Shown: piece after piece, positions 8,585-53,862 of the stretch
Layout: each line of letters opens with the position of its first letter
Position numbering within the stretch: position 1 is the first letter of the stretch
Source of the DNA: a virus
Taxonomy: Duplodnaviria > Caudoviricetes
DNA: 64,000 nucleotides
Virus record (IMG/VR): IMGVR_UViG_3300032303_001195
Coordinates: 1-64,000 of that record
Strand: one strand, 5' to 3'
Position numbers and translations under genes: made by a program
The notes under the pieces: model-generated
Told to the model about the DNA's origin: nothing
Database searches by the model: none
The model's input: only the letters and a program-made list of their open reading frames with translations

Positions 8585-8639
8585 GTTATCCAATCGTTAC
8601 AATAAGTTTACCATATCAGGTTTATGTTATAATTGAAAC

Positions 8640-12783: not shown

Positions 12784-13377
12784 ATGAGCGTTTTTGCAGC
12801 CACTCTTGGAACTAGTTTTTATGTTCCTTCAGGACCACCACCACCTTCAGTAATTGATCTTGGTGCTGGATATGGTCCTACTGCCAATCCTTCTGATGGC
12901 ACACTATTCAGAAGAGAATACATTGGATACCATACTGATGATATGAATTGGTTTTTATCAGCACCACTTTTAAATGCTCTTGCAGATCCAGGAATAACTG
13001 TTAATGAAACTACTACTAATAATGAATTAAGTGATAACTTCTCAGTTATGTGGACAGGATATTTTTATGCCCCATCTGGTGGTCAGTATAGATTTGGTAC
13101 AGCAAGTGATGATGGATCATACTTATGGATAGGCGATAAGGCTATTAATGACTGGAGAGTAGTAACAGCTGATGTACAAAATGGTGGTCCTCATGGATTA
13201 ACTCCCATTGAAAACACAACAGATGTTTTAATGGTTGGTGGAAGATGGTATCCAATCAGAATGGTATTTGGTGAATTTACTGGTGGAGCAGTATTCTCCA
13301 TGTCAGTAGAATTAGTTGGTAGTGGACCTGTAACTCCAATATGGCAATATAGCCAAGGTAGCCCTGAAGGGTTCTAA
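12784..13377 (+). CDS. PA14-domain (carbohydrate-binding) protein
   Basis: NFSVMWTGYF..P..G.Y.F...SDDGSYLWI...YPIR..FGE..GG. Confidence 0.8.
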   Translation: MSVFAATLGTSFYVPSGPPPPSVIDLGAGYGPTANPSDGTLFRREYIGYHTDDMNWFLSAPLLNALADPGITVNETTTNNELSDNFSVMWTGYFYAPSGGQYRFGTASDDGSYLWIGDKAINDWRVVTADVQNGGPHGLTPIENTTDVLMVGGRWYPIRMVFGEFTGGAVFSMSVELVGSGPVTPIWQYSQGSPEGF

Positions 13378-13378
13378 G

Positions 13379-13709
13379 TGGAAGTGCTGGGAATCGAACC
13401 CAGGTCCTAATCAGTTGTTGTCGGTATTCTACATGCTTAGATAGTTTCTCGAAGAGGTCTGGTTGCCACTATCAAGTCCAGATCCTTTTAACTATACCAT
13501 CCTAAGAAGCATCACATTATTTTACTGAGGATACCCACTGAGCGTGACCACTATAAGGTATCGGCTCTTTTTAATTGCCCTCGGAAGTTAGGCAGCTAGA
13601 GCGTAGCTGGATTTGTCTGCACTTATCCCTTTGTCACCAATCAAGTGATCGTGACAGTCACTACATGCTTCCCCGACACTGAGTGATTAGTCGAAAACCT
13701 TTCACTCCC
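13379..13709 (-). ncRNA. ssrA: tmRNA, tag peptide (A)ADKSSYALAA
   Basis: 5' GGGAGTGAAAGGTTTTCGAC and 3' GGACCTGGGTTCGATTCCCAGCACTTCCA form an Ala-type acceptor stem with G3-U. Resume codon follows ATAAGT at 13620, and the tag stops at 13588. Confidence 0.92.
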
Positions 13710-14020: not shown

Positions 14021-14704
14021 ATGGACATTGTTTATATTTGCCGTGAAGGTGACAACGAAGAGTTAAGATACTCAATTAGATCAGCAGTAAAAAACCTCCC
14101 TCATGATAATCTGTGGGTAGTTGGAGGGAAGCCTGATTGGTATACTGGCAAGCATATACCAGTAGAACAAAATAGATCATACTACGTAAATGCAAGAAAT
14201 AACTTAAGGGCTATTTGTGCCAGTAGAGACATCTCAGAAAGCTTTGTGCTGATGAATGACGACTTTTTTATAATGAACCCTACCCAAGGTATCCCCTATT
14301 TTCATTGTGGGTATTTAAAAGATAGAATTGAAAGAAGATTAACTAATGATAGAGCTAACATGTATACATATTATTTAAATCAAACATATAGTGATCTGTT
14401 TCAAAAAAGAATTTATAAACCAGTAAGCTATGAGCTTCATGTACCATTTGTTTTTGAAAAAGAAAAACTATTTGATGTACTAGGATATAAAGGTTTATGG
14501 AGATCTTTGTATGGGAACATTTATAATGTTGGTGGAGAACAAATGGAAGACGTAAAGCTTTTTAAATCTGAAAACCCATATGCAAATCATTCGTTTGATA
14601 TGGAAACTGCAACATTCGTGTCAACTGAAGATGAAGCGTTTCCACTATACAAAGAATGGTTCCAGAAGAAATTTCCAGAACCATCTTTGTTTGAGTCCCC
14701 TTGA
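14021..14704 (+). CDS. Stealth-family-like sugar-phosphotransferase
   Basis: DIVY, ELRYSIRS..KN.P and SESFVLMNDDFFI resemble Stealth conserved regions. Confidence 0.6.
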   Translation: MDIVYICREGDNEELRYSIRSAVKNLPHDNLWVVGGKPDWYTGKHIPVEQNRSYYVNARNNLRAICASRDISESFVLMNDDFFIMNPTQGIPYFHCGYLKDRIERRLTNDRANMYTYYLNQTYSDLFQKRIYKPVSYELHVPFVFEKEKLFDVLGYKGLWRSLYGNIYNVGGEQMEDVKLFKSENPYANHSFDMETATFVSTEDEAFPLYKEWFQKKFPEPSLFESP

Positions 14705-14768
14705 CTGGATTCGAACCAGCGACACAAGGATTAGAAGTCCTATGCTCTATCCACTGAGCTACAAGGGG
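14696..14768 (-). tRNA. tRNA-Arg(UCU)
   Basis: CCCCTTG/CAAGGGG acceptor, CTTCTAA anticodon loop, GGTTCGAATCC T-arm. Confidence 0.92.
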
Positions 14769-19131: not shown

Positions 19132-19826
19132 AACGATGCGTTCGTAATACCTATATATAGAATAAGCCCTAGTCAGAATACATTGTTTTGATTGGGGTTT
19201 TTCTATTTGCCACATAGCCACATATGCGAAGATCATGTTACCCCCAAACATTCCCAGGACTATATATAGTGCTTCGTAATCCTTTTTTATACTATATGTA
19301 GATAGTTATGCACAGGTTTATTCACAGATTATCCACATATATCTGACTGAATATATAAATATAGACTAAGTGTTGTTTGATAGGATAGTGTTTGAGTAAT
19401 TGCGCCTCTATATCTAGGGGCTTCGTAATCCCCCAAACACTACATCTAGTATCCAAATATCCAAATCAAACAATCCACATAGCCCCAAGTCCCCAAACAA
19501 TGTATTTGAGAAGCCCAAATAAGTGTTTATATATATAGGGAAAATGATCTATTTTGATCAGAAATGTATTCATATATATAGGATTTGTTTATATATAGGG
19601 GATATTTGTAGGATTTCGTAATACCCTGGCGGATCCCCCCAAAAATCGGGGGTATTGTTAATGCCTACCAAACCACAAATTAACCACAGTAATACAAATA
19701 CCCAATAGAAGTATAAACACTATAGCTGCGATATCCATTTGATCTCCTTTCGTAAAAAGTCCCACGATTTTTTTAGGTCCTTCGTAATGTTATTTTTTGA
19801 TTTGGTGATTTGGATGCCCTAGGGGT
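19132..19826. repeat. AT-rich non-coding region with iteron-like repeats and tandem DnaA boxes
   Basis: TTCGTAA(T) at 19141, 19273, 19422, 19615, 19749, 19781. Also TATATATAG and CCCCAAAC repeats, and DnaA boxes at 19306, 19318, 19329. Confidence 0.8.
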
Positions 19827-19836
19827 GGGCGCCGCC

Positions 19837-19858
19837 CCACCTCCCCGAAGGGAGGCAG
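19837..19858 (-). terminator. cUUCGg hairpin, exact 22-bp repeat of 22153-22174
   Basis: CCTCCC-TTCG-GGGAGG on the minus strand, between a stop codon and the palindrome. Confidence 0.6.
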
Positions 19859-19867
19859 GGGTAGCAA

Positions 19868-20173
19868 CTACTCTTCTGAGTCAGCCTTGAGGTTTAGGTT
19901 ATCATTGGCAAGATTTACAATATCATTAAGGCTCTCAAACCCTGTATCCTCTAAGCCATAGATAGCCAGCAAGACATCAAATGTCTCGTTGATAAACTTT
20001 TCGGACAACTCGGTAGGCTCTACAATGCCATAAGCCAAAGCATAGGCAAGGGGTAGACCCAAGTCGTTGTAGTCAATGAAGTCCTCAAAGTCTGATTCGT
20101 TCTTGTATGTTACCCATAACTCAGCAAGGATTTCACACTTGCTAGAAAAGGGGGTCGATGTTGTTTCTGACAT
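19868..20173 (-). CDS. Hypothetical protein
   Basis: MSETTSTPFSSKCEILAELW...YNDLGLPLAY. Confidence 0.75.
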   Translation of the reverse strand: MSETTSTPFSSKCEILAELWVTYKNESDFEDFIDYNDLGLPLAYALAYGIVEPTELSEKFINETFDVLLAIYGLEDTGFESLNDIVNLANDNLNLKADSEE

Positions 20174-20351
20174 ATTCCATTTCTCTCTCATATTGTGCTG
20201 ACTCTGCAATTACGATAATGCGATGATAAGATACATTCGGTGCTTGTCTACCAAGATACCTTCCAACTTCCTCGATATCTAGTGTCAGGTCATTTACTAT
20301 TGTGGCAAGTTTTTTAGCCGCTTTTTCCTCTTCTGTTAGTTGCTTTTTCAT
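20142..20351 (-). CDS. Hypothetical protein
   Basis: ORF with GGAG RBS. Confidence 0.7.
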   Translation of the reverse strand: MKKQLTEEEKAAKKLATIVNDLTLDIEEVGRYLGRQAPNVSYHRIIVIAESAQYEREMEYVRNNIDPLF

Positions 20352-20377
20352 ATTACTCCAGTTTAGCAGTTGGTTGG

Positions 20378-20752
20378 CTAGTTGTCAATACCCTGCATTT
20401 GGTACGGTGGAAGATTGTTAAGGTAATCAACAATACGCTGTGGTACGTTCTTGTATACCTGAAGAATTGAATAACTATCTAACCAAAAATCTTCATCTTG
20501 AGCATAGTCGCCTCCGTCATCAATCCCAACACCAAGAGTCATCTGGTCAGCTTCTTCCTGAGTTAAATAAATATCTAGCTCTTGTCGCTCACGTCCTGTG
20601 CCATAAGATGCATAGTCTTCTGCAATCTCATTAAAGCTAAACTTCCATTGTGAGTTTTCCTTGGTAGGCTCTTCCCCATTCATGAGGTTGTGCCATCCTA
20701 GGTTCCAGATGTTGACATCATATACGTTATCTAATTCAACTCTCATTGTCAT
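20378..20752 (-). CDS. Hypothetical protein
   Basis: Acidic 124-aa ORF. Confidence 0.7.
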   Translation of the reverse strand: MTMRVELDNVYDVNIWNLGWHNLMNGEEPTKENSQWKFSFNEIAEDYASYGTGRERQELDIYLTQEEADQMTLGVGIDDGGDYAQDEDFWLDSYSILQVYKNVPQRIVDYLNNLPPYQMQGIDN

Positions 20753-21119
20753 CTTTGTCCATCTCGCATTCGCTACAAATAATTACAGGTGTTCCATCAT
20801 ATCGCTTGTGGTCTACCCACACATGCTCGTCCATGTCGCACAGTGTCATTTCATATATGTCTATCTGAATAATTACATCTTGGTTATGTGGTATGTGACA
20901 GACATAGAATCCCATGCGATTGACAAAACTAATACCATTACTGATTACACTGTAGTCACCACCGTCTGTCCATGTCCAAAGATATTCATTGTCTATCTCT
21001 TGAATGATATCGTAGTCTGCACCATATGTTTCATACATAACAGGATTACCATCAAAATCACAGATTGGTTTGTATTGCTCTACCCACTCGTCGTAGGTAA
21101 GGTCGATTATAGTATTCAT
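20736..21119 (-). CDS. Hypothetical protein with C-terminal Zn motif
   Basis: Leaderless ORF after a TGTC-box promoter. Contains YETYG..WT..DG...VNRMG and C..H...CxxC. Confidence 0.75.
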   Translation of the reverse strand: MNTIIDLTYDEWVEQYKPICDFDGNPVMYETYGADYDIIQEIDNEYLWTWTDGGDYSVISNGISFVNRMGFYVCHIPHNQDVIIQIDIYEMTLCDMDEHVWVDHKRYDGTPVIICSECEMDKDDNES

Positions 21120-21147
21120 AGTTACACCTTATCACTAGGGTACGACA

Positions 21148-21381
21148 TTAGGAATATAGGGCGATGTATTCGTCAATAAGGTCTGGTTGGAATCCACTCC
21201 ACCACATGGTCCCTGCATTAACGACAGGAGCAGACTTAAATCCCTCGGCTAAAAGTTGATCGAGTGCGTCTACATCCTCGGTAATATCGACGGTAGTGTA
21301 GGCTACACCTTTATCGTCAAAGTACTTCTTAGTAGCATTACACTGTACACAGTTAGGTTTGGTATAGATAGTAGGAGTCAT
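21148..21381 (-). CDS. nrdH: NrdH-redoxin
   Basis: IYTKPNCVQC...APVV...WSGFQPD. Confidence 0.9.
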   Translation of the reverse strand: MTPTIYTKPNCVQCNATKKYFDDKGVAYTTVDITEDVDALDQLLAEGFKSAPVVNAGTMWWSGFQPDLIDEYIALYS

Positions 21382-21384
21382 ACT

Positions 21385-21630
21385 CTAGTTTACCACGGTC
21401 CGATACTGCTTATTCACAAAGTAGTCTTGTGAGTAAATAGTTTTCATCTCATGGTCATGTACACATCGTTGATAGTTTTGGAAAGCTAGCTCACCATAGA
21501 AAAACTTAGGTCGCTGTCCCTCTAGTACTACCTTATAAAAATCATTCTCGGTATCTGACTCCCATACCTCTGCAACCTGGGAATGATAGATACGACGCCA
21601 AACCTGGTCAGCTGCTTTTGGTCTACGCAT
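21385..21630 (-). CDS. Hypothetical protein
   Basis: Coupled start MRRPKAA. Confidence 0.6.
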   Translation of the reverse strand: MRRPKAADQVWRRIYHSQVAEVWESDTENDFYKVVLEGQRPKFFYGELAFQNYQRCVHDHEMKTIYSQDYFVNKQYRTVVN

Positions 21631-21742
21631 TATGGGTGTACTTCCTCTCCTGTACAAATAACTATTTCATTATTCTTATCTACAAATACATGCATGTTAG
21701 GAAAAGCATTCCCTACTAGTCGCTCTACCTCAGCTACAGACA

Positions 21743-21922
21743 TCATGCCTCTTCCTCCTCGTCTTCATCGCCCTCTTCATAGATAAGCTCTGCATCTACA
21801 GAATCGACGGAATCGTACTGAAGGTTCTCCATATAGTATCCTAATTGCTCTGCCTCTTCCTGAGACTCAGCCTCGATAGTACCAGAAAATCTAATTAGGG
21901 TTTCAACATAGTATTGGTTCAC
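21743..21922 (-). CDS. Small acidic hypothetical protein
   Basis: Hand translation ...IEAESQEEAE... with an acidic tail. GGAG RBS and GTG start. Confidence 0.6.
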   Translation of the reverse strand: MNQYYVETLIRFSGTIEAESQEEAEQLGYYMENLQYDSVDSVDAELIYEEGDEDEEEEA

Positions 21923-22185
21923 AGCATCTCCTCTAGTTGTTCATCGGTCAGGCTATCAATTCTAGCAAGACCCTCCGACAGCATCATGGCAATAGCCTTT
22001 TCTAATTCGTTCATATGTATAGTATGGCATGAGGGTACGACATTCTGCAACTTTTCAAGCCTTTCGTTACCTTATCGTAATCTGGGAAATATGTTTGTCT
22101 ATCGTAATGCATTAGAAATGAATGTTTGTATACAAATGGATCGGCGCCGCCACCACCTCCCCGAAGGGAGGCAGTGACTGACCGA

Positions 22186-23208
22186 CTAGGAAGCCATTGT
22201 CATATTCTGAACAATGCGAAGAATACGGTTCTTCTCTGCGTTCATAGCAGGGTCAAAGCCAGAAGCCGAAGCCAACACAGACTCGTTGTTACCCTTGCGA
22301 CCATTACGATACCAGTCAAGCCGTTCGGTGATACCGTTGAGCACCCCCCAAGCCGTTCCCGAAATCGTGTTGTTGAACTGACCGTTGTAGATGTCCTCAA
22401 CGAGTTCCAACTTAGTCTGCCACTTGGACATAGCACCCTTAGCGTCCTTCTCAGGCATGGGGTAGACCTCACGAAGAATGTCTTGGAACTTGTCGTTCGT
22501 GACCTCAGTCTCAATCATAGCCTGAGCCATCTTGTCAAACTCGTCCATGTATTCATTCGCAAGACCGAGAGCGATACGAGCCTCATTGACACGACCCTCA
22601 GCCGTCTGAGTGTGACGAATCTTGAACGACTGCTTGGCACTACGCCAGTGACCTGTGCCACTACCGATAGCCATGTTCAGAGTGTTCGCACATACGACAC
22701 GCACAGGCGTGATGCTCGCCATAATGGACACCGACCCATCGTGAGATGTGTTTACCAATAGGTAAGTGTTTACCTTGTCGCCTACACCCTTGGGGTCAAG
22801 CACAGTCTCACGCTCAAGAGCCAAAGCACCAAAGACAACACGACCACCCTTGATAGAACCAGCCGTCTCCCAGCGTCCACCACCATCGAGCAGGTTGTCA
22901 CCAAAGGTAAACAAGTCCTCATTCTGAAGCGTGTTGTAACGCTCACCAACGATACCCAGAATGTCTTTCTGACCATCGGTGAATGGGTTATTACGAGTAA
23001 CAAAATAGTTAGTCTTGTCAGAGGTGAATCCGTCAGGAATAGGAATCTCAGTCAAACCGACATTCCACTTGTCAAGGTGAGCAAGTTCGAGCATCTCAGA
23101 GGTAGTTACTTCTTCCTCCATGACCGTACCCAAACCATGCCACGCAGGTTCACGCAGAGTAGCAAAAGCGACCTCGCCGTTCGCACCCTGTTCAAGTTCG
23201 TGTGCCAT
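22186..23208 (-). CDS. DUF932-family phage/plasmid protein
   Basis: PAWHGLG, WETAGSIKGG, NTSHDGS, TPVRVVCANT, RHT, TAWG..N..TE..D. Confidence 0.9.
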   Translation of the reverse strand: MAHELEQGANGEVAFATLREPAWHGLGTVMEEEVTTSEMLELAHLDKWNVGLTEIPIPDGFTSDKTNYFVTRNNPFTDGQKDILGIVGERYNTLQNEDLFTFGDNLLDGGGRWETAGSIKGGRVVFGALALERETVLDPKGVGDKVNTYLLVNTSHDGSVSIMASITPVRVVCANTLNMAIGSGTGHWRSAKQSFKIRHTQTAEGRVNEARIALGLANEYMDEFDKMAQAMIETEVTNDKFQDILREVYPMPEKDAKGAMSKWQTKLELVEDIYNGQFNNTISGTAWGVLNGITERLDWYRNGRKGNNESVLASASGFDPAMNAEKNRILRIVQNMTMAS

Positions 23209-23353
23209 GTATAGCCTTTCATTAGCGGTTGTTTAGTTATATAAGTATGACACAGACCACCGACAATTACAAGCTCCAGAGACATATTCTTAATCATCGT
23301 AATTGAAATGTTACATTCGCAGATCGGGGCGCCGCCCTCGGAGGGTATGAGAA

Positions 23354-23380
23354 TAGGCAGTTTAAAGACATGCCTAGGTC
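23354..23380 (-). ncRNA. Conserved H-type pseudoknot motif, copy 1 (others at 24637-24665 and 25157-25183)
   Basis: GAC-C-UAGGCA-U-GUC-UU-UAAAC-UGCCUA, with compensatory changes between copies. Confidence 0.7.
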
Positions 23381-23435
23381 TATTGGATGGAGCCAAGAAA
23401 GGAATTAACAAAACTCCATCCTAGCTTTAAGGTCC

Positions 23436-23954
23436 CTACTCGTCCTCAAACTCCACAGAGTCAAGGTCGTAGTCGAAACTACTCAGAGCGTCATAGCCAT
23501 AAGCCACATTCAGGTCAGCCTCAAGTTCATAGCGGTCAAGTTCATCAGTGTCCTCAAAGATACTAATCTCAATCTGACCAGAGAAGTTGATACTACCAGA
23601 TACGTTTACGGTCTTGGTGAGTTGGCAACCGACCAATTCAGCAATCTCTTTAGCACCAGCATTGGTGACAAGTTCATGGTCAATCTGAGTCTTGAGAAGT
23701 TCCCCAAGGTTCTTACGGATTTCGTCAATTTGACGAGCCTCACGGTAGTAGTTCTCTTCCCAACGTTTAGCCTTATTCTCAAGTACCTCAATGTCTTTCT
23801 TCAAGTCACCAATCTGCATTGCGAGTGCAGTCTCGATACCGAGGTCAGCCTCTGGTACAGTTCCAGATAGGATTCCGCCTACAGGTGGCAATTCCTTGTG
23901 CTCCACGTTCTTGTATCCCATAAGTTGGTCGTAGGTTTCGTAGTTCTCTTCCAT
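23436..23954 (-). CDS. Hypothetical coiled-coil protein
   Basis: 172-aa ORF. Confidence 0.75.
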   Translation of the reverse strand: MEENYETYDQLMGYKNVEHKELPPVGGILSGTVPEADLGIETALAMQIGDLKKDIEVLENKAKRWEENYYREARQIDEIRKNLGELLKTQIDHELVTNAGAKEIAELVGCQLTKTVNVSGSINFSGQIEISIFEDTDELDRYELEADLNVAYGYDALSSFDYDLDSVEFEDE

Positions 23955-23956
23955 TA

Positions 23957-24211
23957 TTAGTTCCCCATTTCTTGAAGCATTTCAATAGTGTTGTTGAGAG
24001 TCTCAAAACCCTCTTCACCGAGGCAAACCTCAGCGGTAAGGAATGAGGACATAGAAGCAACCTCACCCACAAGGGCAAGCAAAGCACTACGCATAGTGTC
24101 CTCAGTCATTTCGAGACGGTCATACAGAATGGCACTAGCCAAAGTGATAGCCCTATCTGTTCGTACAGATTCACGGACAGCAGTCTGTAATCCAAAAGCA
24201 ATGTCAATCAT
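23957..24211 (-). CDS. Hypothetical protein
   Basis: Own promoter and GAAAGGG RBS. Confidence 0.7.
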   Translation of the reverse strand: MIDIAFGLQTAVRESVRTDRAITLASAILYDRLEMTEDTMRSALLALVGEVASMSSFLTAEVCLGEEGFETLNNTIEMLQEMGN

Positions 24212-24258
24212 TCTTTTCCCTTTCGTTGTTGACTTTAGTTTAGCAGTACCCACCGACA

Positions 24259-24480
24259 CTAGTCGGATAGGTCAGTGATGTGAGTGACGATAGTGTCAGT
24301 CTCACCCTCTTCAATCAAGTCCATAGCCTCTTCAGCGTCGATATCAAATTCGGGGTAGTTAGACTCGTCCAAGTATCCCATACCGACATTCCAAATAGCC
24401 TCAGCCTCGTCAGCAGAGTTTGCTCTAACCAAATAGGTAGTGCCATTGATAATTTCGTATAATCCCTTTTTCTTTTCCAT
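24259..24480 (-). CDS. Hypothetical acidic protein
   Basis: Leaderless ORF after a TGTC-box promoter. Confidence 0.7.
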   Translation of the reverse strand: MEKKKGLYEIINGTTYLVRANSADEAEAIWNVGMGYLDESNYPEFDIDAEEAMDLIEEGETDTIVTHITDLSD

Positions 24481-24675
24481 ATATAGAGTATGACACTACC
24501 CTCCGACATTTGCAAGCTCCAGGGGTCTATTTCGTAACATCGTAACCTGTTTGTTATATGGGCGGCGCTGATCGGCGCCCCCCACGAAGAAACCCCCTGC
24601 TACCAGCAATCTATCCAGACGCTTCACAGGGGGGAGTGAGTAGTTTACTTAGACATACTCAGGTCATTTTTCTAC

Positions 24676-25125
24676 TTACAGCAGTTCCATTACGGTGTTG
24701 TAGGTAGAGGCATTGACTTCCTCTTGGTTTGTCATTTTGAGAACCTTGAGGTTCTTCTTGAGCAAGTCCAACTTCGTCGTGTAGTCACGACCATACGACT
24801 GACGCTCATTCGGGTTAGAAGGTTCGACAGGCTTGGCAGGAAGGTCAAGCGAGTCGGTGTTTACATGAACAGTTACGCCACCAAGACCATAACGATTAGC
24901 CTCAACACGGATAATCGAGTCATACGAATCACCAATGTTGTCAGGGTTCTTGAGAGCCTCAATAACAGCCTGAAGAACAGCGTCGTTGTACGACTTTGTA
25001 GCCTGACGGAATGCTTCCTTGTCTTTGGGGTAGGTAGCAATGTCAGCCTCAAGTTTGGCAATAGTAGCCTCAACATCAGCAATCAAAGTTGCGGTGGGGA
25101 TTTTTACAGCAAGTGAACGAGCCAT
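24676..25125 (-). CDS. Hypothetical protein
   Basis: 149-aa ORF with AAAGGA RBS. Confidence 0.8.
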   Translation of the reverse strand: MARSLAVKIPTATLIADVEATIAKLEADIATYPKDKEAFRQATKSYNDAVLQAVIEALKNPDNIGDSYDSIIRVEANRYGLGGVTVHVNTDSLDLPAKPVEPSNPNERQSYGRDYTTKLDLLKKNLKVLKMTNQEEVNASTYNTVMELL

Positions 25126-25201
25126 TAGATTCCTTTTCTTTAGCAGTTTGTTTGAGTGGGCAGTTTAGCCTGATACCCAGCAGACAGACTAGGGTCTGAC
25201 C

Positions 25202-25342
25202 TTACTTGACCGTTGTCCAACGGCTGTCACCGTTAGGCAGGGTGAGCAGAACACGAGTCGAACCGCTTGCGTTCTTGATTACCTCGGCAATCGTGCCAGT
25301 CACACCCGACTTCTGCGTGGTGAAGATTTCTCCGATATTCAT
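25202..25342 (-). CDS. Small SH3-like hypothetical protein
   Basis: MNIGEIFTTQKSGVTGTIAEVIKN...RWTTVK, with GAGGA RBS. Confidence 0.7.
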   Translation of the reverse strand: MNIGEIFTTQKSGVTGTIAEVIKNASGSTRVLLTLPNGDSRWTTVK

Positions 25343-25509
25343 TGCTTCCTCATTTCTGTTGGCGAGCCAGCCAACTTATTTGTCCAAGCCGTTTGCTTGT
25401 TATACAAGTATGACACACACCACCGACATTATCAACTCCAAATGGCACTTTTGGGAGTTTTGTTATCATTTCGTAACCTAATTTTTGGGCAGGGGGGCGC
25501 CGCCCTCCA

Positions 25510-26232
25510 CTACTTTTTAGTAGCAGAGAACAGAATGTCATTGCGTTGGAAGATACATTGCCCACAGGTAACACAGGCACTACCCTTTTCGCTAATCATG
25601 GGTAGTTTCTTGTTATTTTCGGGGCATGGGATAGCACTCTCACCAGTAATTTCAAGAATGTCAGCCTTACCAATAGCGAATGTCTGAGCAAGGTAAGCCA
25701 ACTTGATACCGTGAGTCTCTTTTAGACTGATAGCCAATTCTTTGTTAGCACTATCGGTTGAGAAGTAGAAACCAAGATTAGGAATGTCAATCAGGATAGG
25801 CACAGCAAAGTCTGAACGTGTGTATGCCCAGAATTGCACATCTTGAAAGTCACAAATCACATCACGCCATGCATATGTGTAGTCTTCGTTGAAGAAGTCA
25901 CCGTCCCAGTGAATGCGGAATAGTTTTTCTGCACCACGACGCTCGCAATCAGAAACAAAATCCTCAATCATCTCATGGATAAGGTTATACATGGTTAGGT
26001 AGTCAGCGTCTTTGACTAATGCCCAGTTGTGTTCGAGGTTGATACGCACACCCTTGAATACCTTTTCCAACTTGCCAGCGTAGCAGATAGTTTCGCATAC
26101 GCTAGTAGCACCTGGACATGAGAAGGCAGTGCCAGAAGGCAAACCAAAAGTGTTAGCGATACTAGCCTGTTTGCCATTAGGCGTTACAGCGTTGGTTACT
26201 TTACGGTCTTTAGAGCGAATCAACTTTGTCAT
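25510..26232 (-). CDS. GP88-like (radical-SAM-related) phage protein
   Basis: FGLP.G..CPGA...C...CYA and FRIHWDGDF...YTRS, with C-terminal CP...CxxC..C. Confidence 0.75.
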   Translation of the reverse strand: MTKLIRSKDRKVTNAVTPNGKQASIANTFGLPSGTAFSCPGATSVCETICYAGKLEKVFKGVRINLEHNWALVKDADYLTMYNLIHEMIEDFVSDCERRGAEKLFRIHWDGDFFNEDYTYAWRDVICDFQDVQFWAYTRSDFAVPILIDIPNLGFYFSTDSANKELAISLKETHGIKLAYLAQTFAIGKADILEITGESAIPCPENNKKLPMISEKGSACVTCGQCIFQRNDILFSATKK

Positions 26233-26369
26233 AGTCTTACTATACATTGACCCACCGACATTGGGGGATACAGGATCTGGTCGGCGCCGCCCCTAGGGGT
26301 TGTGCGTTATCGAGTCGCACCCCTCGGTCAGGTTCTCGCAATCCTGACATTGTTAGCGAGAGTCTTTGA

Positions 26370-26864
26370 CTACCAAGAAGCCTGATAGGTGAAACTCACA
26401 CTATCGTCACCGTAGGTCTGAATCAGAACACGGTCTAACTCTTTGGCGGTGTCCTCCAAGTCTGACCAATACCACTCGTCATACTCAGTTGAGCCAAAGA
26501 AGAAGCCTGACGAAGTAGGCAGAGCCACAGGTGCTTTCTCACGGTGAATGAGAACATCCTTTACCAAGTCACGCAAGTCCTCTAAATCCTTGCGACGGAC
26601 ATAGATAGGCTGACACTCGTCTACACCGTTGGCGAGATTGTCCACAAACCATTGGTGAATTGCATTTGCCTTACGCCAATAGATAGCGGTAGCAGTTACA
26701 GAAACGCTGTAGTTATGCTCGTCGGTCACGAAGTTTTTGAGTCCAGCAGTCTCAAGAATAGCCAAGCCTTCTGGCACATCCTTTTTGACAATATCGCCAT
26801 TCTCCTGAACCCAATCAGAAGTTCGAACATTCTTGCGAACCTCAAGATACATGTCCAAGCCCAT
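26370..26864 (-). CDS. Conserved phage hypothetical protein
   Basis: MGLDMYL...YWRKANAIHQWF...LPT..GFFFGS.EYD...Y.ASW. Confidence 0.8.
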   Translation of the reverse strand: MGLDMYLEVRKNVRTSDWVQENGDIVKKDVPEGLAILETAGLKNFVTDEHNYSVSVTATAIYWRKANAIHQWFVDNLANGVDECQPIYVRRKDLEDLRDLVKDVLIHREKAPVALPTSSGFFFGSTEYDEWYWSDLEDTAKELDRVLIQTYGDDSVSFTYQASW

Positions 26865-26910
26865 TAGTTTTTCCTTTCGTTTCTTTTTATTTTAGCAGTA
26901 CCCACCGACA

Positions 26911-27018
26911 TTACTCACAATTGTGAAACACATAACTGCTTGCGATATCGGTAAAGCCACACTCAACACATTCGCACATAAGTCCAGCACGAGTCGGGGT
27001 AATAATCATTTTCGTCAT
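26911..27018 (-). CDS. Micro Zn-finger protein (35 aa)
   Basis: CxxC...HxC, leaderless after a promoter copy. Confidence 0.55.
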   Translation of the reverse strand: MTKMIITPTRAGLMCECVECGFTDIASSYVFHNCE

Positions 27019-27198
27019 AAAATAACTATAACAGCACCCACCGACACTGGGGGGCGCCGCCCTCCTATGGATTCCTAGACTTGATTTTTCTAACTACTGA
27101 CTCAATGATAAACAACACTGCAAAAATCAAAGGGGATAAAATAGCCATCCCAATAATTATTGCAATCAGTGTGAGCGTTAGAATTATTAGAAACCCCA

Positions 27199-27976
27199 CT
27201 ACTCAAGCACCTCATATTTGGGATTAGAATATTCTCCCCTTACCCGAATGGATTCCTCGAACATCTTCCAGCCTGTTTGGAATGTCTTTGGGTGACAGTA
27301 TTGGTCAAGGGAATACAGGATATCCTCGCCATCAGTGTTTGGGTCAAAATCTTCGGGTACGGTAACATCAGTAGTCAGCGTAGTAGTGATACGATATGTA
27401 GGCATTATGCTCCTTAGTGGTCAATTTCGTGGTACAGGCAGGTAGTGCAGATTTTTGTCCAGTCGTTACCGTCGCCTTCATCGGGTGCGAGGGTATCGGG
27501 TGCAAAGTCATTACAAACAGTCATTTTACTCCTTAGAGAAACTCGAATGGGTCACGGTCTTGGAAGATATCCTCAAAGTCTTGCATGGAATAGGATTGTG
27601 GATTTTCATACCACTCTTCCAATGCCTCCAGGATTTCCATACCCTGCTCGTCACCCTCAAACGGATTGCTTTTCATCCCACACCTCCGAATACTTTACAA
27701 TGAACTCACGAACACTTGGAACATGAGTGAAGTCTGCTTCCTTATTTAGTGCCATGTCTAATAGGTCACCAGCCACGATAGCCAGAAACTGTTTCTCTTC
27801 CATTATGCCTCCCACTTGTCGGTTGGTAGTCCATTCAGTATAGCGTAGACGTACGACATTTTCTCGTAGTCAGGCAGGATTTCGAGGGTATCCCATTGGG
27901 CAATAGTCACGTCAGTAGTATCAAACACTAGACAATCTTCTGCCCCATAGTTACCATACTCTGATACATAAGCCAT
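27199..27976 (-). CDS. Operon of five small hypothetical ORFs (27803-27976, 27657-27803, 27533-27676, 27414-27524, 27199-27405)
   Basis: Tiled ORFs with RBSs downstream of the promoter copy at 28016. Confidence 0.6.
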
Positions 27977-28046
27977 GATTTTTTCCTTTCGTAAGTAATC
28001 CTATTATGACACTACCCACTGACATTGGGTCGGCGCCCCTGGATCT

Positions 28047-28122
28047 TGGCTCCCCCTCATGGACTCGAACCATGAACCTGCTGATTAACAGTCAGCTGCT
28101 CTGCCAATTGAGCTAAAGGGGA
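28047..28122 (-). tRNA. tRNA-Asn(GUU)
   Basis: Canonical cloverleaf, CTGTTAA loop, encoded CCA. Confidence 0.95.
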
Positions 28123-28123
28123 A

Positions 28124-28200
28124 TGGCGACTCTGACCAGACTTGAACTGGCGACCCCTACCGTGACAGGGTAGTGCTCTAACCAACTGAGCTACAGAGCC
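28124..28200 (-). tRNA. tRNA-Asp(GUC)
   Basis: Canonical cloverleaf, CTGTCAC loop, encoded CCA. Confidence 0.95.
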
Positions 28201-28214
28201 ATTGTCCTATTGTA

Positions 28215-28376
28215 TCAGGCATACTCCCGAATAGCAACCTGCTTGATTGCCCCACGAGTCCTCTGACGGTTAGGTCGATTGTCGTGAGTGGTAGCCGCAT
28301 TGGAACTACGCAGACCACGCATAGCAACAATGTATGCGGTGTTCTGAATCTTCTTGGGTGCTGTCTTTTTCTTCAT
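28215..28376 (-). CDS. Small basic hypothetical protein
   Basis: LRSSNAATTH...RQRTR, leaderless after a promoter copy. Confidence 0.65.
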   Translation of the reverse strand: MKKKTAPKKIQNTAYIVAMRGLRSSNAATTHDNRPNRQRTRGAIKQVAIREYA

Positions 28377-28468
28377 ATCTCAATACTAGCAGTGACCACT
28401 GACATTGGAGGCATTTTTAGTAATATACTTAATAACATTCCGATAACGGATCGGGGCGCCGCCCCCCC

Positions 28469-29767
28469 CTAAAAGGGAGGTCGGTTCAGTAGTGCCTCAT
28501 ATTCGGCTTCCTTGTATTTCGTGTACAGGTACAGAATCACAAGGGTGTCGAACAGAATCACGCCCATCATTATGACGAACAGCCAAAATAGGTTCATTAG
28601 TTCTCCTCGAAGTCATAGCAAGCGTTGATAAATACATTGCGTTGGAATCGCTCATTGTCCTTAGCAAACATATCTGCGAAGTCATGAACAAGGTCAAGCA
28701 TACGCTGTTCGTTACTGATTGGCATATCACCAATAAAATCAGCAAGAATGCTAGCGGTTTCCACATAGTCTTTGCGTGTCATCATTTTAGTGTGTCCTTT
28801 TCTTTGTTGGTTTTAGTTTACAGCAAGCCACCGACACTACGAACCGTAGACGGTCAGCAGTGTGCGGTAGCCATTGGCACGACCCTCGCACCACGAAGCC
28901 ATGCCTTCCATGCCAGCCTCACGGTACATGATTACATCAGCCTCGTTTTGCTCGGCAAGCCACTCAAGCGATTCGACTGGGATAGTGATTGTGTTTTCCA
29001 TAGTTTTCCTTTCGTTGTATAACAACTGTATCAGTACCCACCGACATTGCAGGGCATTTACAGCGTGTTTCGTATAACGGTTTGATAACAGTCGGGGCGC
29101 CGCCCCTGCTAGTTGTAGCCCTCTACCCAAATATTTTCCTCTAACAGCATGTCCACATAGTCAGCGAAGCCACAGCGGTATGCGATTGGGTCACAGTTCT
29201 TGAGAATGTCTGCAGGGTAGAACTCTGAGTAGCCAATGGTCACAATGCCATAGCAATCATTTAGATATGCGTCATAGTCATCTCGGGCTTGTTCTTCGGA
29301 CAGGATTTCGTGCTTTGCGATTTCGTTCATATAATGACTATAACACTACCCACCGACAGAGGTCGGCGCCCCCCTAATATCCATAGTCTTCGTCAGTACC
29401 CCAGCCAGCAGAGGCAAGAGCATCTGCATCCCACCAAGACTCGTCTGGCTCGTAGTCCTGAGACTCAAGAGAGTTGCCAGAGATGTCCCAATAGGCTTCG
29501 GTGTCCTCAACAGTCCACTCATTGCCGAGGTCGTCAAGGTAGGCGACAATCTCGTTACCCTCACCAAAAATAGGCTCAAAAATCATTAGTTATCCTTTCG
29601 TTGTTATAACAAGAATAGCAGGGGGTACTGACACTCCTCCGTAATTCACTTGGTAAGCGGATCGGCGCCGCCCCCTACCAGCGGAAGTCTTCCTGTTCGT
29701 CATACCATTCCTGGTAGACGTATTCGGTTCCACAGCCACAGCAGGGGCGGTCTTCACATGTACACAT
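28469..29767 (-). CDS. Six micro-ORF cassettes (28469-28597, 28597-28785, 28837-29001, 29109-29330, 29374-29586, 29675-29767)
   Basis: Each is framed by a promoter/RBS and a palindrome or the next promoter. They include MTRKDY...ERF...AC and CEDRPCCGC peptides. Confidence 0.7.
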
Positions 29768-29816
29768 AGTGTGCCTTTCGTTTGGAGTGATAAAAGAATA
29801 GCAAGGGCTACCGACA

Positions 29817-29972
29817 CTACATGTTTCTAGTGTCAGCCTCAGCCACGATTTCCGCATCAGGGAACACCTTGATACAGGTGGCACACAGTGCGACAGGGGT
29901 TTCTCGCAAGAAGCCAAGCTCAATAAGGTACACAGCGTCTCGGTGCTGGCAGAATTCACATTCGGGGTTCAT
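29817..29972 (-). CDS. CxxC-CxxC micro zinc-finger protein
   Basis: MNPECEFCQHRDA...LCATC...IVAEADTRNM. Confidence 0.65.
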   Translation of the reverse strand: MNPECEFCQHRDAVYLIELGFLRETPVALCATCIKVFPDAEIVAEADTRNM

Positions 29973-30133
29973 AGTTTTCCTTTCGTTACCACTAGACTAG
30001 CATGACCCACCGACATTGGGGAAAATTTCCGAGGCGTTTTAATGCGCTTACGTAAACTGATTTTGGAATGGTCGGGCGGCGCCGACCCCACCGACATTTG
30101 TCAAGCGACACGCCGATCGGGTTGACTTATTTT

Positions 30134-30265
30134 TCAGGGGCAGAAGGTCGCCCAAAACAAAAGAATAAACCAATAGGCAGAGTACAAAATAGCAAAAGCC
30201 ATACCAATGCGAACAACTGCCCTAGCGATACCACGAACAACATAGTAAGTCTTTGAGTGATTCAT
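30134..30265 (-). CDS. Small membrane protein
   Basis: AGGAG RBS and a hydrophobic C-terminal half. Confidence 0.6.
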   Translation of the reverse strand: MNHSKTYYVVRGIARAVVRIGMAFAILYSAYWFILLFWATFCP

Positions 30266-30272
30266 TATGCTC

Positions 30273-30443
30273 CTAGTCTGCAATCGGGAAGATATCAAGA
30301 ATCGGGAAGGCAGTTTCCAATTCATCGCACACGATAGCATCGTGGCACTGTTGACAGACAGCGACAAAAGTCAGTTCGACAATTTCGGTGTCATACTCCA
30401 AGACTTCACGAGCCTCACGGTAGTCACAGATTTCACATTCCAT
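30273..30443 (-). CDS. CxxC-CxxC micro zinc-finger protein
   Basis: MECEICDYREA...VCQQC. Confidence 0.65.
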   Translation of the reverse strand: MECEICDYREAREVLEYDTEIVELTFVAVCQQCHDAIVCDELETAFPILDIFPIAD

Positions 30444-30595
30444 TAGTTTTCCTTTCGTTTACGTTTTGATTCTAACAGCACCCACCGACATTCACATACG
30501 CGACACGCCGATAACCCAGAAAAAAGTTATCCACATCTTAAATAAAAGTTATCCACAGGGCGGCGCCGCCCCCTGCGACATTTGTCAAGTCCTGG

Positions 30596-30955
30596 CTAGG
30601 CGTTTCGCAAATATTCCATTGCCCTAGCGATGCGGTCTAAATCATCTTGGAACACGCCCAAGCCACGGTTACAGTTGTGGCAGATGTGTCCACGGAATGC
30701 ACCTGTACCGTGGTCGTGGTCTACTACCCACACCGATGCGTTGCCACCTGTTCCCTTTAGTTCATCTTCTGACTTCAGGCAGATAGGGCAGGTGTGTCCC
30801 TGTTCGGGGTAGCCATACTCTTTACGCAGAGCACGACGCTCACTAGACAACTTACGACCACAGTCACGGCACTCAGGTCGCAGGTACTTGCCACCAGAGG
30901 CAGGGGAGAATGAAGCGTGAGGTAGGGACTCTTGGCACTTGGAACAGGTTTTCAT
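30596..30955 (-). CDS. Endonuclease VII-family (HNH-type) nuclease
   Basis: CPIC...VVDHDH.TG..RG..C..CNRGLG.F.DD. Confidence 0.9.
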
Positions 30956-31160
30956 AGGTTTCACTTTACGCTAGGGTACTGACATTGTGGTAAGCGACAC
31001 GCCGATTACAGGAAAATTTTCAAGGCATTTTAATGGATCTACGTAAATGTGGATAAGTTATCAACAGGCGGCGCCGATTTTTTTGGAATACGCAAACCGA
31101 CACGCCGTGTATTCCAAAATTGGCATATGCGAGAGATCCCGATTTGGGGAGGGTAGTCTG

Positions 31161-31298
31161 CTAACTAGCAAACTCGCCCTCTTCACGCATGATAGCGAAA
31201 CGCTCGCTAATCAGGCAAGGCTTACAGATAAGCCATTCACCATGTGCGGACACATAGACAGTCTCTACAGACTTTTCACAAACTTCACAAATTTTCAT
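31161..31298 (-). CDS. CxxC-CxxC micro zinc-finger protein
   Basis: MKICEVC...ICKPC. Confidence 0.6.
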   Translation of the reverse strand: MKICEVCEKSVETVYVSAHGEWLICKPCLISERFAIMREEGEFAS

Positions 31299-31315
31299 TT
31301 TGAGTTTTCCTTTCT

Positions 31316-31471
31316 TTACTTGAGAGCGTCAAGCATACGCTCGAACGCCTCTTCGGTTAGTGACACGGTAGCCATGCCGATTACGAATGGGTAAGCCTCT
31401 GTGCGAGACTTGAGGTTGTACTTAGCGACACAAGCGTCAAGCACCTGATTCATCATTTCTGATTTTTCCAT
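31316..31471 (-). CDS. Small hypothetical protein
   Basis: GAAAGG RBS, and a repeated 5'UTR motif upstream. Confidence 0.65.
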   Translation of the reverse strand: MEKSEMMNQVLDACVAKYNLKSRTEAYPFVIGMATVSLTEEAFERMLDALK

Positions 31472-31667
31472 TTTAGTTTTACCTTTCTTTAGCGAGTGAG
31501 ACTTATTTGCTCTGAGACTTATTTGCTAGGCTCACCTTTCGGATTATTTGCTAGGCTCATTCTCTGAGGCTCATTCTCACTCTGTGTAGTTTTTATCTTA
31601 TGTCTTGAGACTATCAGACATTATCTGAAAAGTCAAGCCGACACGCCGTGTTTGCGAAAAAAAGTTT

Positions 31668-31775
31668 TTATTTCTTTTCTGCCATGAATGCGACCATCAA
31701 GCCAAGCAATTCTTCCTGGCTCATGTCTTCCATGTCCTGAACACCTTCGGTGGTGATTACCTTCATGAAACCCAT
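31668..31775 (-). CDS. Micro-ORF (35 aa)
   Basis: GAAAGGAG RBS after a promoter copy. Confidence 0.6.
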   Translation of the reverse strand: MGFMKVITTEGVQDMEDMSQEELLGLMVAFMAEKK

Positions 31776-31997
31776 TTGGTTTCTCCTTTCTATCTGTAAA
31801 CAGACTAACAGTACCCACCGACATTCGACCCCCTGTTTTTCCATCTAGGGGAAATTTTTAGGTAAACATAAGGTAAATTCTTATCCACAAAGTTATCCAC
31901 AGGGGGGCGCCGCCCCCACCGACATTTGTCAAGTCGACACGCCGTGTTTGTCAAAATTAGTTTGTGGTCGATCCACGAGCCACCAACAGGCGACACC

Positions 31998-32144
31998 CTA
32001 GTTTCGGGTATCAGCCTCAGCGACTATGTAGTGAGGCGTAGTCATGCGAGACTCGCAACGCACACACACATAGGTAGGCATGGACTCCATCATCATCATG
32101 ATTTCGAGAGTAGCCTCATAGTATTCACAGAATGTACAGGTCAT
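31998..32144 (-). CDS. CxxC-CxxC micro zinc-finger protein
   Basis: MTCTFCEYYEA...VCVRC...IVAEADTRN. Confidence 0.65.
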   Translation of the reverse strand: MTCTFCEYYEATLEIMMMMESMPTYVCVRCESRMTTPHYIVAEADTRN

Positions 32145-32189
32145 AGTTTTCCTTTCTTTGTATTTACAGTATGACATAGGGTACTGACA

Positions 32190-32390
32190 CTACAGTACGG
32201 TCACCTTGTTTCCAAGGGTAGCGTAGGCAGTAGTGCCATTAGTAAAAGTAACCTGACAGGTAGTACCGTTCAGTCCTTTCACGTTAGCGATAACACCTGT
32301 GTAGTGAAACACAGGTCCAAACGGATAAGGCTTGTTGCTGAACGCAACACGCTTTCCGATTAGGGATTTGATTTTTTGAGTGTAAGTCAT
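32190..32390 (-). CDS. Small beta-rich hypothetical protein
   Basis: GAAAGGA RBS. Confidence 0.7.
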   Translation of the reverse strand: MTYTQKIKSLIGKRVAFSNKPYPFGPVFHYTGVIANVKGLNGTTCQVTFTNGTTAYATLGNKVTVL

Positions 32391-32629
32391 GATTGACTTC
32401 CTTTCTTTTTAGGAGGGATTTATTTGCTAGGCTCATTCCCGATTGGGACTTATTTGCTAGGCTCACTCCCTCGTGACTTACTTACAGTATCGCAGTACCC
32501 ACCGACATTGGAGGGCATTTTAGTAGGGGTTTCACCCTATTTTTAGGTTAACGTAAGTATAAAGTTCATCCACAGAGTTATCCACAGGGCGGCGCCGCCG
32601 CCTCAAACATTTGTCAAGGCGACACGCCG

Positions 32630-32859
32630 TTAGGCGTTCATTTTCTTTTTGGTCAGAGCTAGCAACTCTTCGAATTCCAATTCAGTCATGTACTCACCCT
32701 TAGCAATGAGCATGAGTTCTTGATAGCGTGACATTAGTTTACCTTTCGTTAGTGTTTTGATTTTAGCAGGTGGTACTGACACTAGAGTCCGAATATCTTT
32801 ACCAAGATAACGAACACGAGGGTTAGTACCGATACTGTGAATGAGACGATAGCGAGCAT
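32630..32859 (-). CDS. Two micro-ORFs (32782-32859 single TM peptide; 32630-32734)
   Basis: Each has its own promoter copy and GAAAGG RBS. Confidence 0.6.
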
Positions 32860-33534
32860 TTGAGTTATTACCTTTCTTTGTTATGACTATAGTCAATCAC
32901 TAACCACCGACATTAGCAATGCGACACGCCGATAAGTGAAAAAATAAAAAAAAGAAAGTTTTGGGGGTGTGTAGTGGTGTGCTCACTATAGTCGACCCCC
33001 CCATAGGCTATTTTTTCTGTATCGTTCATCTTTAAAAAATATTCAGATTTTCATCAAATCCAAAATAAAAAATTTTTCAGATTTTAGCCATACACAGATT
33101 TAAGAATCAGGATCACCAGGGTGTACGATAGGACAATAGCCACAGCACCTGCGAGGATCAATCCGATATTTTTCAGGGCAGACAAAATCTTCGTCATGCT
33201 GTGATTGTTTCGGGGGTACGGTTAACAAGTCCATAATGCAAAGCCCATATAGTAATAAGCTTGTATGAAACCTTCTGCTCTTTGCTGATAGCACGAACAC
33301 TCTTGGTTTCTAGCTCTTTAGCGAGCCAATCTTTGTTTTCATAGTTTTTTACTTTGACTGGATCCATTATTCTCTCCTTAGAATGAGTCGGCGTCAGGAA
33401 TTAAGTTTATGTCATGGCAAATGCAATATTCTGGATCTCCATTAAAGATGCAGACGCATTCTTCTGATTTGTTAAGGTTTAAAACTTCGGGGGTATCACA
33501 AGAACAATTACCATTACACATAGTAATAATTATA

Positions 33535-35065: not shown

Positions 35066-35066
<1 letters not shown>
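34680..35066 (+). CDS. Probable virion structural protein
   Basis: Beta-rich (RGDT...FDLQV) and coupled to the fibre gene. Confidence 0.7.
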
Positions 35067-40038
<4,972 letters not shown>

Positions 40039-40039
<1 letters not shown>

Positions 40040-44171: not shown

Positions 44172-44203
44172 TACCCCTGGAGAAATCTGGGGGTATTCTT
44201 TTT
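44172..44203 (+). terminator. Intrinsic terminator
   Basis: TACCCC...GGGGTA stem plus T-tract. Confidence 0.7.
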
Positions 44204-53810: not shown

Positions 53811-53824
53811 GTAGAACAATCTTG

Positions 53825-53862
53825 AGGGGGTGAGGACAATAGTCCTCGCCCCTTCTTTATTT
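53825..53862 (+). terminator. Intrinsic terminator after capsid gene
   Basis: GGGGTGAGGAC/GTCCTCGCCCC stem plus T-rich tail. Confidence 0.8.

Follow-up and report, generated by a model that had tools for sequence, protein, structure and literature searches.

Background

Why would a six-letter palindrome recur at one gene boundary after another in a single region of a phage genome? The question is raised by IMG/VR record IMGVR_UViG_3300032303_001195, a 92,156-bp contig from an uncultured freshwater phage, in the first 64 kb of which (hereafter the window) 17 copies of GGCGCC separate the small genes of a minus-strand array of early genes. A prediction made from the letters of this stretch had proposed that the palindromes delimit self-contained cassettes and serve as exchange sites on a gene-shuffling platform, and had named the attC cassettes of integrons and the promoter-stem-loop (PeSL) cassettes of T4-type phages as precedents. 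The explanation that we prefer, and to which we would give an even chance, is that GGCGCC belongs to a PeSL-like boundary module, that cassettes are exchanged by homologous recombination and that no recombinase specific for GGCGCC is involved.

PeSLs, known from RB49/phi1, PST/T4 and nt-1/KVP40, combine a polyG/polyC stem-loop with an early promoter, between a stop codon and a promoter, and five subclasses are distinguished by where the stem-loop stands with respect to the promoter. Some copies are degraded and retain only the -35 and the stem-loop, crossovers have been mapped in or beside the stem-loop, and both terminator activity and mini-circles have been shown experimentally (PMC2839356, PMC4122927).

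Results and discussion

A palindrome at the borders of self-promoted early cassettes

GGCGCC occurs 17 times in the window, always within 19828-32596, and the whole 92,156-bp record has only these 17; chance would give a mean of 2.7 and at most 9 per window (100 dinucleotide-preserving shuffles). The confinement of 17 copies to the array had been claimed in the original prediction, and the same 17 positions were recovered. At every site, a stop codon or tRNA precedes the palindrome, and the regulatory region of the following unit comes after it. Read on the minus strand, the unit consists of a stop codon, a G-rich flank, GGCGCC, a C-rich or GATC-containing flank, optional tandem boxes, a TGTC-box promoter, a ribosome-binding site (RBS) and one or more small open reading frames (ORFs), which is the order that had been described. 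The gap between the end of the stop codon or tRNA and the palindrome is 3-9 nt at 25510, 27065, 28047 (tRNA-Asn), 28469, 29109, 29374 and 29675, among them all five stop codons (25510, 28469, 29109, 29374 and 29675) already singled out for their closeness to the palindrome, and reaches up to ~100 nt at the remaining sites.

A TGTC-box promoter, composed of the TGTC box and a -10-like hexamer and followed by a conserved RBS, lies within ~110 nt after 16 of the 17 sites, in 12 cases in the exact PafBC form and in 4 as a near match. The exact motif, TGTCRG, 10 nt, TAnnnT, is found 16 times on the coding strand (21959-32781) and 0 times on the other. It conforms to the motif published for the PafBC-dependent RecA-NDp promoters of mycobacteria (Actinobacteria), tGTCgg, 10 nt, tAnnnT, with a -26 element in place of the -35 (PMC8635444). 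The distance from core to promoter varies from 6 to ~110 nt. The core occupies the -35 position at 27053, 28032 and 29365, stands where the -10 should be at 30078, 30562, 31906 and 32591, and otherwise lies upstream of the promoter; at the four sites of the second kind the promoter is indeed cut off by the palindrome at its -10, as had been noticed. Among relatives, each lineage has its own six bases behind TGTC (e.g. TGACCC, AGACCC, GTAGGG), which suggests a co-evolving activator or different hosts.

Cassette exchange probably follows homology and not the palindrome

Relatives were retrieved with the GP88-family gene of the array (PF17338) as a conserved anchor; its product is encoded by ~600 IMG/VR contigs. 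Among the close relatives, GGCGCC arrays are found only in L005 and L006 (99% GP88 identity), with 15 and 16 copies, and these two and the window are the three independent genomes compared here; L121, considered as a fourth, was dropped, its genome being identical to that of L006.

Eleven of the 17 junctions, in the downstream part of the array, remain collinear across the three genomes, and the palindrome aligns at every one of them. Identity is strongly mosaic from cassette to cassette, so that the same cassette may be 94% and 70% identical to the two relatives. By three-way segmentation, ~5 major allelic breakpoints lie within 16 nt of a palindrome (29108, 28472, 28046, 26270, 24588) and ~6 at gene boundaries without one (28588, 27205, 26389, 25340, 25220, 25115). 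Reordering is seen only in the upstream third, at 30.0-32.6 kb, where three of the five junctions (30562, 31906, 32591) share 47-92-nt repeats of 83-94% identity. There, a cassette encoding a small nuclease occupies three different palindrome-to-palindrome slots across the window, L005 and L006. It is 92% identical to the L005 cassette over its full palindrome-to-palindrome length, with both neighbors different, and the homology breaks off within the repeated module, 35 nt short of one core and 15 nt beyond the other; against L006, it stops at the promoter and at TTGACA. Rearrangement breakpoints altogether lie 0-40 nt from the core, at no fixed base. Such a pattern would be expected of homologous exchange between repeated regulatory modules, and not of a site-specific crossover.

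These comparisons divide the proposed gene-shuffling platform into two parts. The early cassettes are self-promoted and relatives do differ in their order and content, as had been supposed, whereas a dedicated exchange site at GGCGCC is not borne out, with 11 of the 17 junctions collinear. The expectation that breakpoints in relatives would fall at the palindrome holds in the upstream third and for the nuclease cassette, where indels and replacements are module-bounded, but is weakened by the collinear junctions and by the allelic breakpoints, which are as frequent at palindrome-less gene boundaries.

An integron-like system, with crossover at GGCGCC, would account for unidirectional cassettes bounded by a repeated palindrome and for the one cassette that matches a relative exactly from site to site. 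It is nevertheless scarcely credible, in that breakpoints are spread over 0-40 nt or fall at the promoter, the 11 collinear junctions have never been rearranged, and boundaries without a palindrome hold breakpoints equally often. Moreover, the ORFs scanned over the 92 kb of the genome included no integrase, tyrosine/serine recombinase or transposase, a bipartite structure like that of attC is missing, and all cassettes carry promoters of their own, findings that also dispose of the integron analogy drawn at the outset. Genes for general recombination are present, with products that comprise a UvsX-like recombinase, a Cas4-like exonuclease, a RuvC-like resolvase and SSB.

The invariant core and its counterparts in relatives

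Conservation was counted over 48 sites, those of the window and of L005 and L006, its closest relatives. All 48 share the hexamer core without change. In the flanks, the information content does not exceed ~1 bit, and the consensus reads GGGC-core-GCCC, GATC being the other flank that is found on either side. There are 35 C and 11 G at position -1, and 29 G and 19 C at position +1. Between orthologous junctions, identity is 100% in the core and 50-85% in the neighboring 40 nt. Seven of the 17 sites have a GATC no more than 14 nt away, which accounts for 7 of the 13 GATC in the array (19700-32700), where 36-50 would be expected (a 3-4-fold depletion); its frequency elsewhere in the genome is normal.

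Equivalent junctions of other relatives hold other cores. L007 (94% GP88 identity) has 0 GGCGCC, and the same junctions hold a G-run and GGCCGG, which in many cases form a clear hairpin whose arms are GGCCGG/CCGGCC and whose loop contains GATC. The core is GGGCCC in L032-34, L048 and L068, with a GGGGCC-loop-GGCCCC form in L048, L068 and L032, while L066 carries two cores, GGGCCC and CCCGGG. L009 (5880-15871) has a non-palindromic GGGCGCG in both orientations, at different junctions, and L022 has TCGA-centered G4/C4 palindromes. The more distant L087 (~70% GP88 identity) has 7 GGCGCC junctions and lacks the GGTGG-type TGTC box of the window. Elements with other cores have a stop codon, hairpin or TTGACA before them and tandem DnaA-like or GTTAC-type boxes and a promoter after them; in many distant relatives, the promoter directly follows the stop codon and there is no such element. 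The common denominator is a G-run/C-run inverted repeat with a lineage-specific center. The over-represented CTGCAG, CAATTG and GCCGGC of some relatives were rejected as equivalents, since they are located in coding sequence.

Restriction avoidance and the choice of core

The avoidance of restriction sites, and with them of palindromes, is an established property of phage genomes. Here, the observed and expected counts for the whole genome are 0/95 for GGCC, 0/44 for CCGG, 5/37 for CGCG and 28/70 for GCGC. Seventeen of the 28 GCGC are the palindromes themselves, and outside the array there are 9 against 45 expected, a ~5-fold depletion. Palindromic tetramers have an observed-to-expected ratio of 0.57 in the array and 0.87 elsewhere, as compared with 1.0 in both for non-palindromic ones. 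Judged by these counts, the depletion is a signature of restriction avoidance that is strongest in the early region, where the array may be exposed to restriction before protection sets in.

Such avoidance leaves little choice. Any perfect palindrome of G and C alone has one of the four GC tetramer palindromes at its center. Because GGCC and CCGG are absent and CGCG nearly so, only a GCGC center is left, and around it only G...C is allowed, since C...G would generate CGCG; GGCGCC therefore appears to be the only GC-only palindromic hexamer that the genome can hold. Invariance ends at the layer outside the hexamer, at position -1, where the avoidance constraint also ends. Across lineages, too, the type of core tracks the avoided tetramers and not relatedness. 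L007 and L008, with core GGCCGG, tolerate GGCC and CCGG and avoid GCGC, and the GGGCCC lineages tolerate GGCC only. L022 and L012 avoid all four GC tetramers; the former has the TCGA center, and no element equivalent to it was seen in the latter. L087 has the avoidance set of the window and the core GGCGCC, despite its ~70% GP88 identity. That the avoidance sets are sharp and differ among relatives points to a strong, shifting pressure from the 4-base restriction systems of the hosts.

A proposed boundary module and the readings that compete with it

In our preferred reading, GGCGCC would be the compact core, made of G and C alone, of a G-run/C-run inverted repeat that is shared across the family and marks the borders of self-promoted early cassettes, and the composite of palindrome and promoter would be a functional analogue of the PeSL modules of T4-type phages. 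Cassettes would be swapped between co-infecting relatives, and occasionally reordered, by the general homologous-recombination machinery (UvsX-like, Cas4-like and RuvC-like), acting on patches of identity in the repeated intergenic modules. The six letters would be invariant because GGCC, CCGG and CGCG are not tolerated. The position and conservation of the sites, the lineage-specific cores, the avoided tetramers, the rearrangements and the breakpoints are observed; we infer that the element insulates cassettes, through attenuation of read-through or as some other structural boundary, and that recombination is homology-driven.

Several observations weigh against this account. A strong core hairpin is predicted at only ~7 of the 17 sites and the folds are weak at 10, some copies lack the G/C-run arms, and a downstream T-tract is present at 0/17 sites. 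Conservation, moreover, is unlike that of a hairpin, with the center, expected to be least constrained, being the most conserved part. The argument for a forced core requires the assumption that the core be GC-only; L022 uses a TCGA center, and TCGA is available in the genome of the window. Finally, the rigid spacing described below hints at a nucleoprotein complex and suggests something beyond a passive boundary.

Could the sites be ordinary factor-independent terminators, or stabilizers of mRNA 3' ends, and nothing else, with the mosaicism being the usual mosaicism of phages and unrelated to them? Their position right after stop codons would fit, as would the breakpoints, which are not palindrome-specific, and the site regions are more structured than random windows of the array (mean minimum free energy of -22 vs -14 +/- 5 kcal/mol). 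We nonetheless consider this unlikely. A canonical intrinsic terminator was rejected, T-tracts being absent at the sites while true terminators, with hairpin and T-tract, exist in the same genome, after late genes such as the major capsid gene (53824-53855) and also at 44172-44195, 57334-57353 and 33863-33840. Many copies fold weakly, the center is invariant while the arms vary, the L009 element is used in either orientation, and some copies lie inside the promoter geometry at a fixed spacing. The invariant center, the two orientations and the rigid spacings point to a role at the level of DNA or of a nucleoprotein.

Such a role would be filled by a dimeric DNA-binding protein, of phage or host, that docks at the palindrome and serves as an operator or roadblock silencing or insulating all early cassettes, or as a helper that directs recombination to the joints. 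This alternative is possible, though we doubt it. In its favor, the core is invariant in 48/48 sites of three genomes that differ by 15-30% around it, and the sites are kept even though GCGC is so depleted elsewhere and palindromes are avoided in the array itself; the two orientations of the L009 element are compatible with action on DNA. Further support comes from a rigid composite, seen in the window (30078-32620) and in L119, L120, L007 and L089, that consists of a GGCGTGTCG box, TTGACA, 14-16 nt, the GC core, 3-5 nt and two DnaA-like boxes. The spacing from TTGACA to the core is 14-16 nt in 16/16 cases from five contigs and is held even where the intervening sequence is unrelated, and the core and the DnaA-like boxes are mostly 3-5 nt apart. 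A protein target has also been suspected in PeSLs, the authors of which speculated that their GGGG...CCCC motif is one (PMC2839356).

The docking protein is less easily reconciled with the cores of close relatives, which differ and in L066 are two, so that repeated co-evolution or a very relaxed reader would be needed; the two cores of L066, together with the two orientations in L009, make a single sequence-specific reader less likely. Nor is the promoter at a fixed distance, and no candidate co-varies with the core, the one nuclease examined included. The pair of DnaA-like boxes next to a GC cluster was also considered as the core of a replication origin of the DnaA-trio architecture; inspection by eye showed no trinucleotide repeat after the GC cluster.

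The mobile nuclease

The gene of the cassette that occupies three slots encodes a Zn-finger nuclease of the beta-beta-alpha-Me type, whose best solved relative is the restriction endonuclease Hpy99I (E = 7e-13), a closer match than T4 endonuclease VII. A phage nuclease of this kind, making programmed nicks or breaks at GGCGCC in the manner of T5 or of homing enzymes, might seed recombination at the joints. The idea draws on Hpy99I itself, a type II enzyme that reads a short GC-rich pseudo-palindrome, on the three palindrome-to-palindrome slots in three genomes, and on the 99% identity of the nuclease to its L005 copy, beside neighboring genes that are far less similar. It is very unlikely all the same. 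Homologues of 67-73% identity are widespread in relatives without the array, on which ground a tie between nuclease and GGCGCC arrays was rejected; in the available stretch of L087, no close homologue was found, despite the 7 GGCGCC junctions, and most junctions are collinear. A broader version, in which the palindromes are recombinase-free cut-and-paste joints, would have a hopping nuclease of the Hpy99I/endonuclease VII type, or some other reader, break or mark the palindrome, promoter-gene units being swapped and the specificity being reset again and again as host restriction rules out one core after another; we see a slim chance of this.

What the array may mean

If the boundary-module reading holds, PeSL-type organization would not be confined to T4-type phages and would extend to an abundant uncultured family of freshwater phages (~600 related contigs). 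A strictly conserved hexamer would then have a simple explanation, restriction pressure leaving one GC-only palindrome and the motif switching with the avoided set, and the same rule might explain the invariant joints GCCGGC and GCCCGGGC of other arrays. That 17 GCGC-containing palindromes are kept where palindromes are most avoided suggests that the element is needed.

Features of the array and the genome

The features of the array are collected in Table 1. Its ORFs are mostly ORFans, and a Pfam scan of 20 further ORFs in and around it identified only two proteins, a glutaredoxin inside the array and a PA14/GLEYA protein beyond its limits.

Table 1 Junctions, promoters, box pairs and genes of the GGCGCC array (window coordinates)
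Feature	Coordinates	Strand	Remarks
Early-gene cassette array	19828..32596	-	17 GGCGCC junctions, 16 intervals; all genes on minus strand
Junction 1	19828..19833		last in transcription order; preceded by CTCCC-TTCG-GGGAG hairpin; no TGTC promoter follows
Junction 2	22143..22148		same upstream hairpin as junction 1; GATC directly adjacent
Junction 3	23328..23333		GATC 2 nt away; upstream of regulatory region of DUF932 gene
Junction 4	24564..24579		'long form'; arms GGCGC/GCGCC, GATC-containing loop; resembles hairpin form of L007
Junction 5	25496..25501		8 nt past stop codon of GP88-family gene; orthologous junction in L005-L009 has lineage-specific cores
Junction 6	26283..26288
Junction 7	27053..27058		at would-be -35 of next promoter, 6 nt before TGTC box
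Junction 8	28032..28037		9 nt after tRNA-Asn, 7 nt before TGTC box
Junction 9	28455..28460		8 nt after stop codon; GATC 2 nt away
Junction 10	29096..29101		7 nt after stop codon; major allelic breakpoint 8 nt away
Junction 11	29365..29370		3 nt after stop codon, at -35 position of next promoter
Junction 12	29664..29669		5 nt after stop codon; GATC adjacent
Junction 13	30078..30083		TTGACA 15 nt upstream; TGTC box runs into core ('promoter without -10')
Junction 14	30562..30567		3' end of nuclease cassette; TTGACA 15 nt upstream; DnaA-like box pair 4 nt downstream; in 47-nt repeat family
Junction 15	31070..31075		5' end of nuclease cassette; DnaA-like box pair follows
Junction 16	31906..31911		within 92-nt module, repeated at junction 17 with 83% identity
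Junction 17	32591..32596		first in transcription order
Exact promoter copies	starts 21980, 24258, 26260, 26910, 27046, 28404, 28836, 29046, 29358, 29633, 29816, 30015, 30490, 30984, 31823, 32781	-
Example promoter	29337..29358	-	TGTCGG, 10 nt, TAnnnT
DnaA-box-like pair	30527..30557	-	4 nt after junction 14
DnaA-box-like pair	31048..31066	-	3 nt after junction 15; one box imperfect, one inverted
DnaA-box-like pair	31881..31901	-	4 nt after junction 16
DnaA-box-like pair	32566..32586	-	4 nt after junction 17; second box imperfect
DUF932-family gene	22186..23208	-	within the array
GP88-family gene (PF17338)	25510..26247	-	Pfam
tRNA-Asn and tRNA-Asp	28047..28200	-	within one cassette
Nuclease gene	30596..30964	-	mobile cassette gene; 122-aa Zn-finger beta-beta-alpha-Me nuclease (Pfam Endonuclease_7)

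The gene for the large subunit of ribonucleotide reductase is divided over the contig ends: positions 104-1558 encode its C-terminal part and 91395-92156 its N-terminal part. Because the ends fall inside one gene, the genome is judged essentially complete and circularly permuted, and the record, labeled 'linear, 85% complete', is probably a complete, circularly permuted genome. A megablast of the array against cultured phages gave no match, and the nearest cultured portal (tblastn) is ~46% identical, from Streptomyces phages; there is no close cultured phage. In IMG/VR, the exact composite pattern had 0 matches and a looser one 32, mostly in unrelated GC-rich contigs and at about the level of chance (an estimate), with L087, L089 and L098 as the only new relatives. 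The metagenome-assembled genome labels are spread over Bacteroidota, Actinomycetota, Cyanobacteria and others, and are taken to reflect mis-binned phage contigs.

Elsewhere in the window there is a phage tmRNA gene at 13378-13709 (-), with the tag peptide ADKSSYALAA, and a tRNA-Arg at 14695-14768. The PA14/GLEYA-domain (carbohydrate-binding) protein is encoded at 12784-13377 (+), beside glycosyltransferase genes at 5851-8593. A 1657-aa tail-fiber protein (35066-40039, +) consists largely of collagen triple-helix repeats, and the DNA of its gene carries a regular series of GGACC/GGTCC inverted repeats.

Comparison with known systems

Integron arrays resemble this one in being unidirectional rows of small units with a repeated palindromic element, the order and content of which vary between relatives. 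The attC site, however, is an imperfect inverted repeat of 55-140 bp with conserved R and L boxes, and its cassettes are promoterless. Here, the element is a GC palindrome of 6-16 bp, the cassettes are self-promoted and have an RBS, no IntI integrase was found among the scanned ORFs, breakpoints are imprecise, and most junctions are stable. In T5-type phages, sequence-specific nicks are made at GCGC-containing sites. The likeness lies in the recurrence of GCGC-containing sites in a phage genome; the sites of the array differ in being clustered at the gene boundaries of one region.

In the (near-)absence of GGCC, CCGG and CGCG and the depletion of 4-bp palindromes, most of all in the early region, the genome is like others that avoid restriction sites. 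What sets it apart from plain avoidance is that a repeated functional element appears to owe its sequence to the avoided sites, so that 'invariant' cores differ from lineage to lineage; in the literature examined, no description of this was found.

The PeSL precedent, finally, fits in detail. In both systems, a composite of early promoter and inverted repeat lies between small ORFan genes of a plastic or hyperplastic region, the polyG/polyC repeat varies in position, being upstream of the promoter, over its -35 or over its -10, and degraded copies consist of a -35 and the stem-loop. In both, whole cassettes distinguish relatives, here with modules as their borders in the upstream third and for the nuclease cassette, the motif varies a little from one lineage to the next, and general recombination would suffice. 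The phage of the array belongs to an unrelated lineage, as judged by its portal protein. Its promoters have a -10 and a PafBC-like TGTC box, whereas those of PeSLs follow the plain sigma-70 consensus, and its elements are mostly loop-less GC palindromes with an invariant hexamer, in contrast to the looped stems of PeSLs. It also lacks the T-tract, has additional fixed partners (GATC, pairs of DnaA-like boxes and TTGACA at 15 nt), and has a core that is linked to restriction avoidance. The array is an analogue of PeSLs in an unrelated phage lineage, and not an integron.

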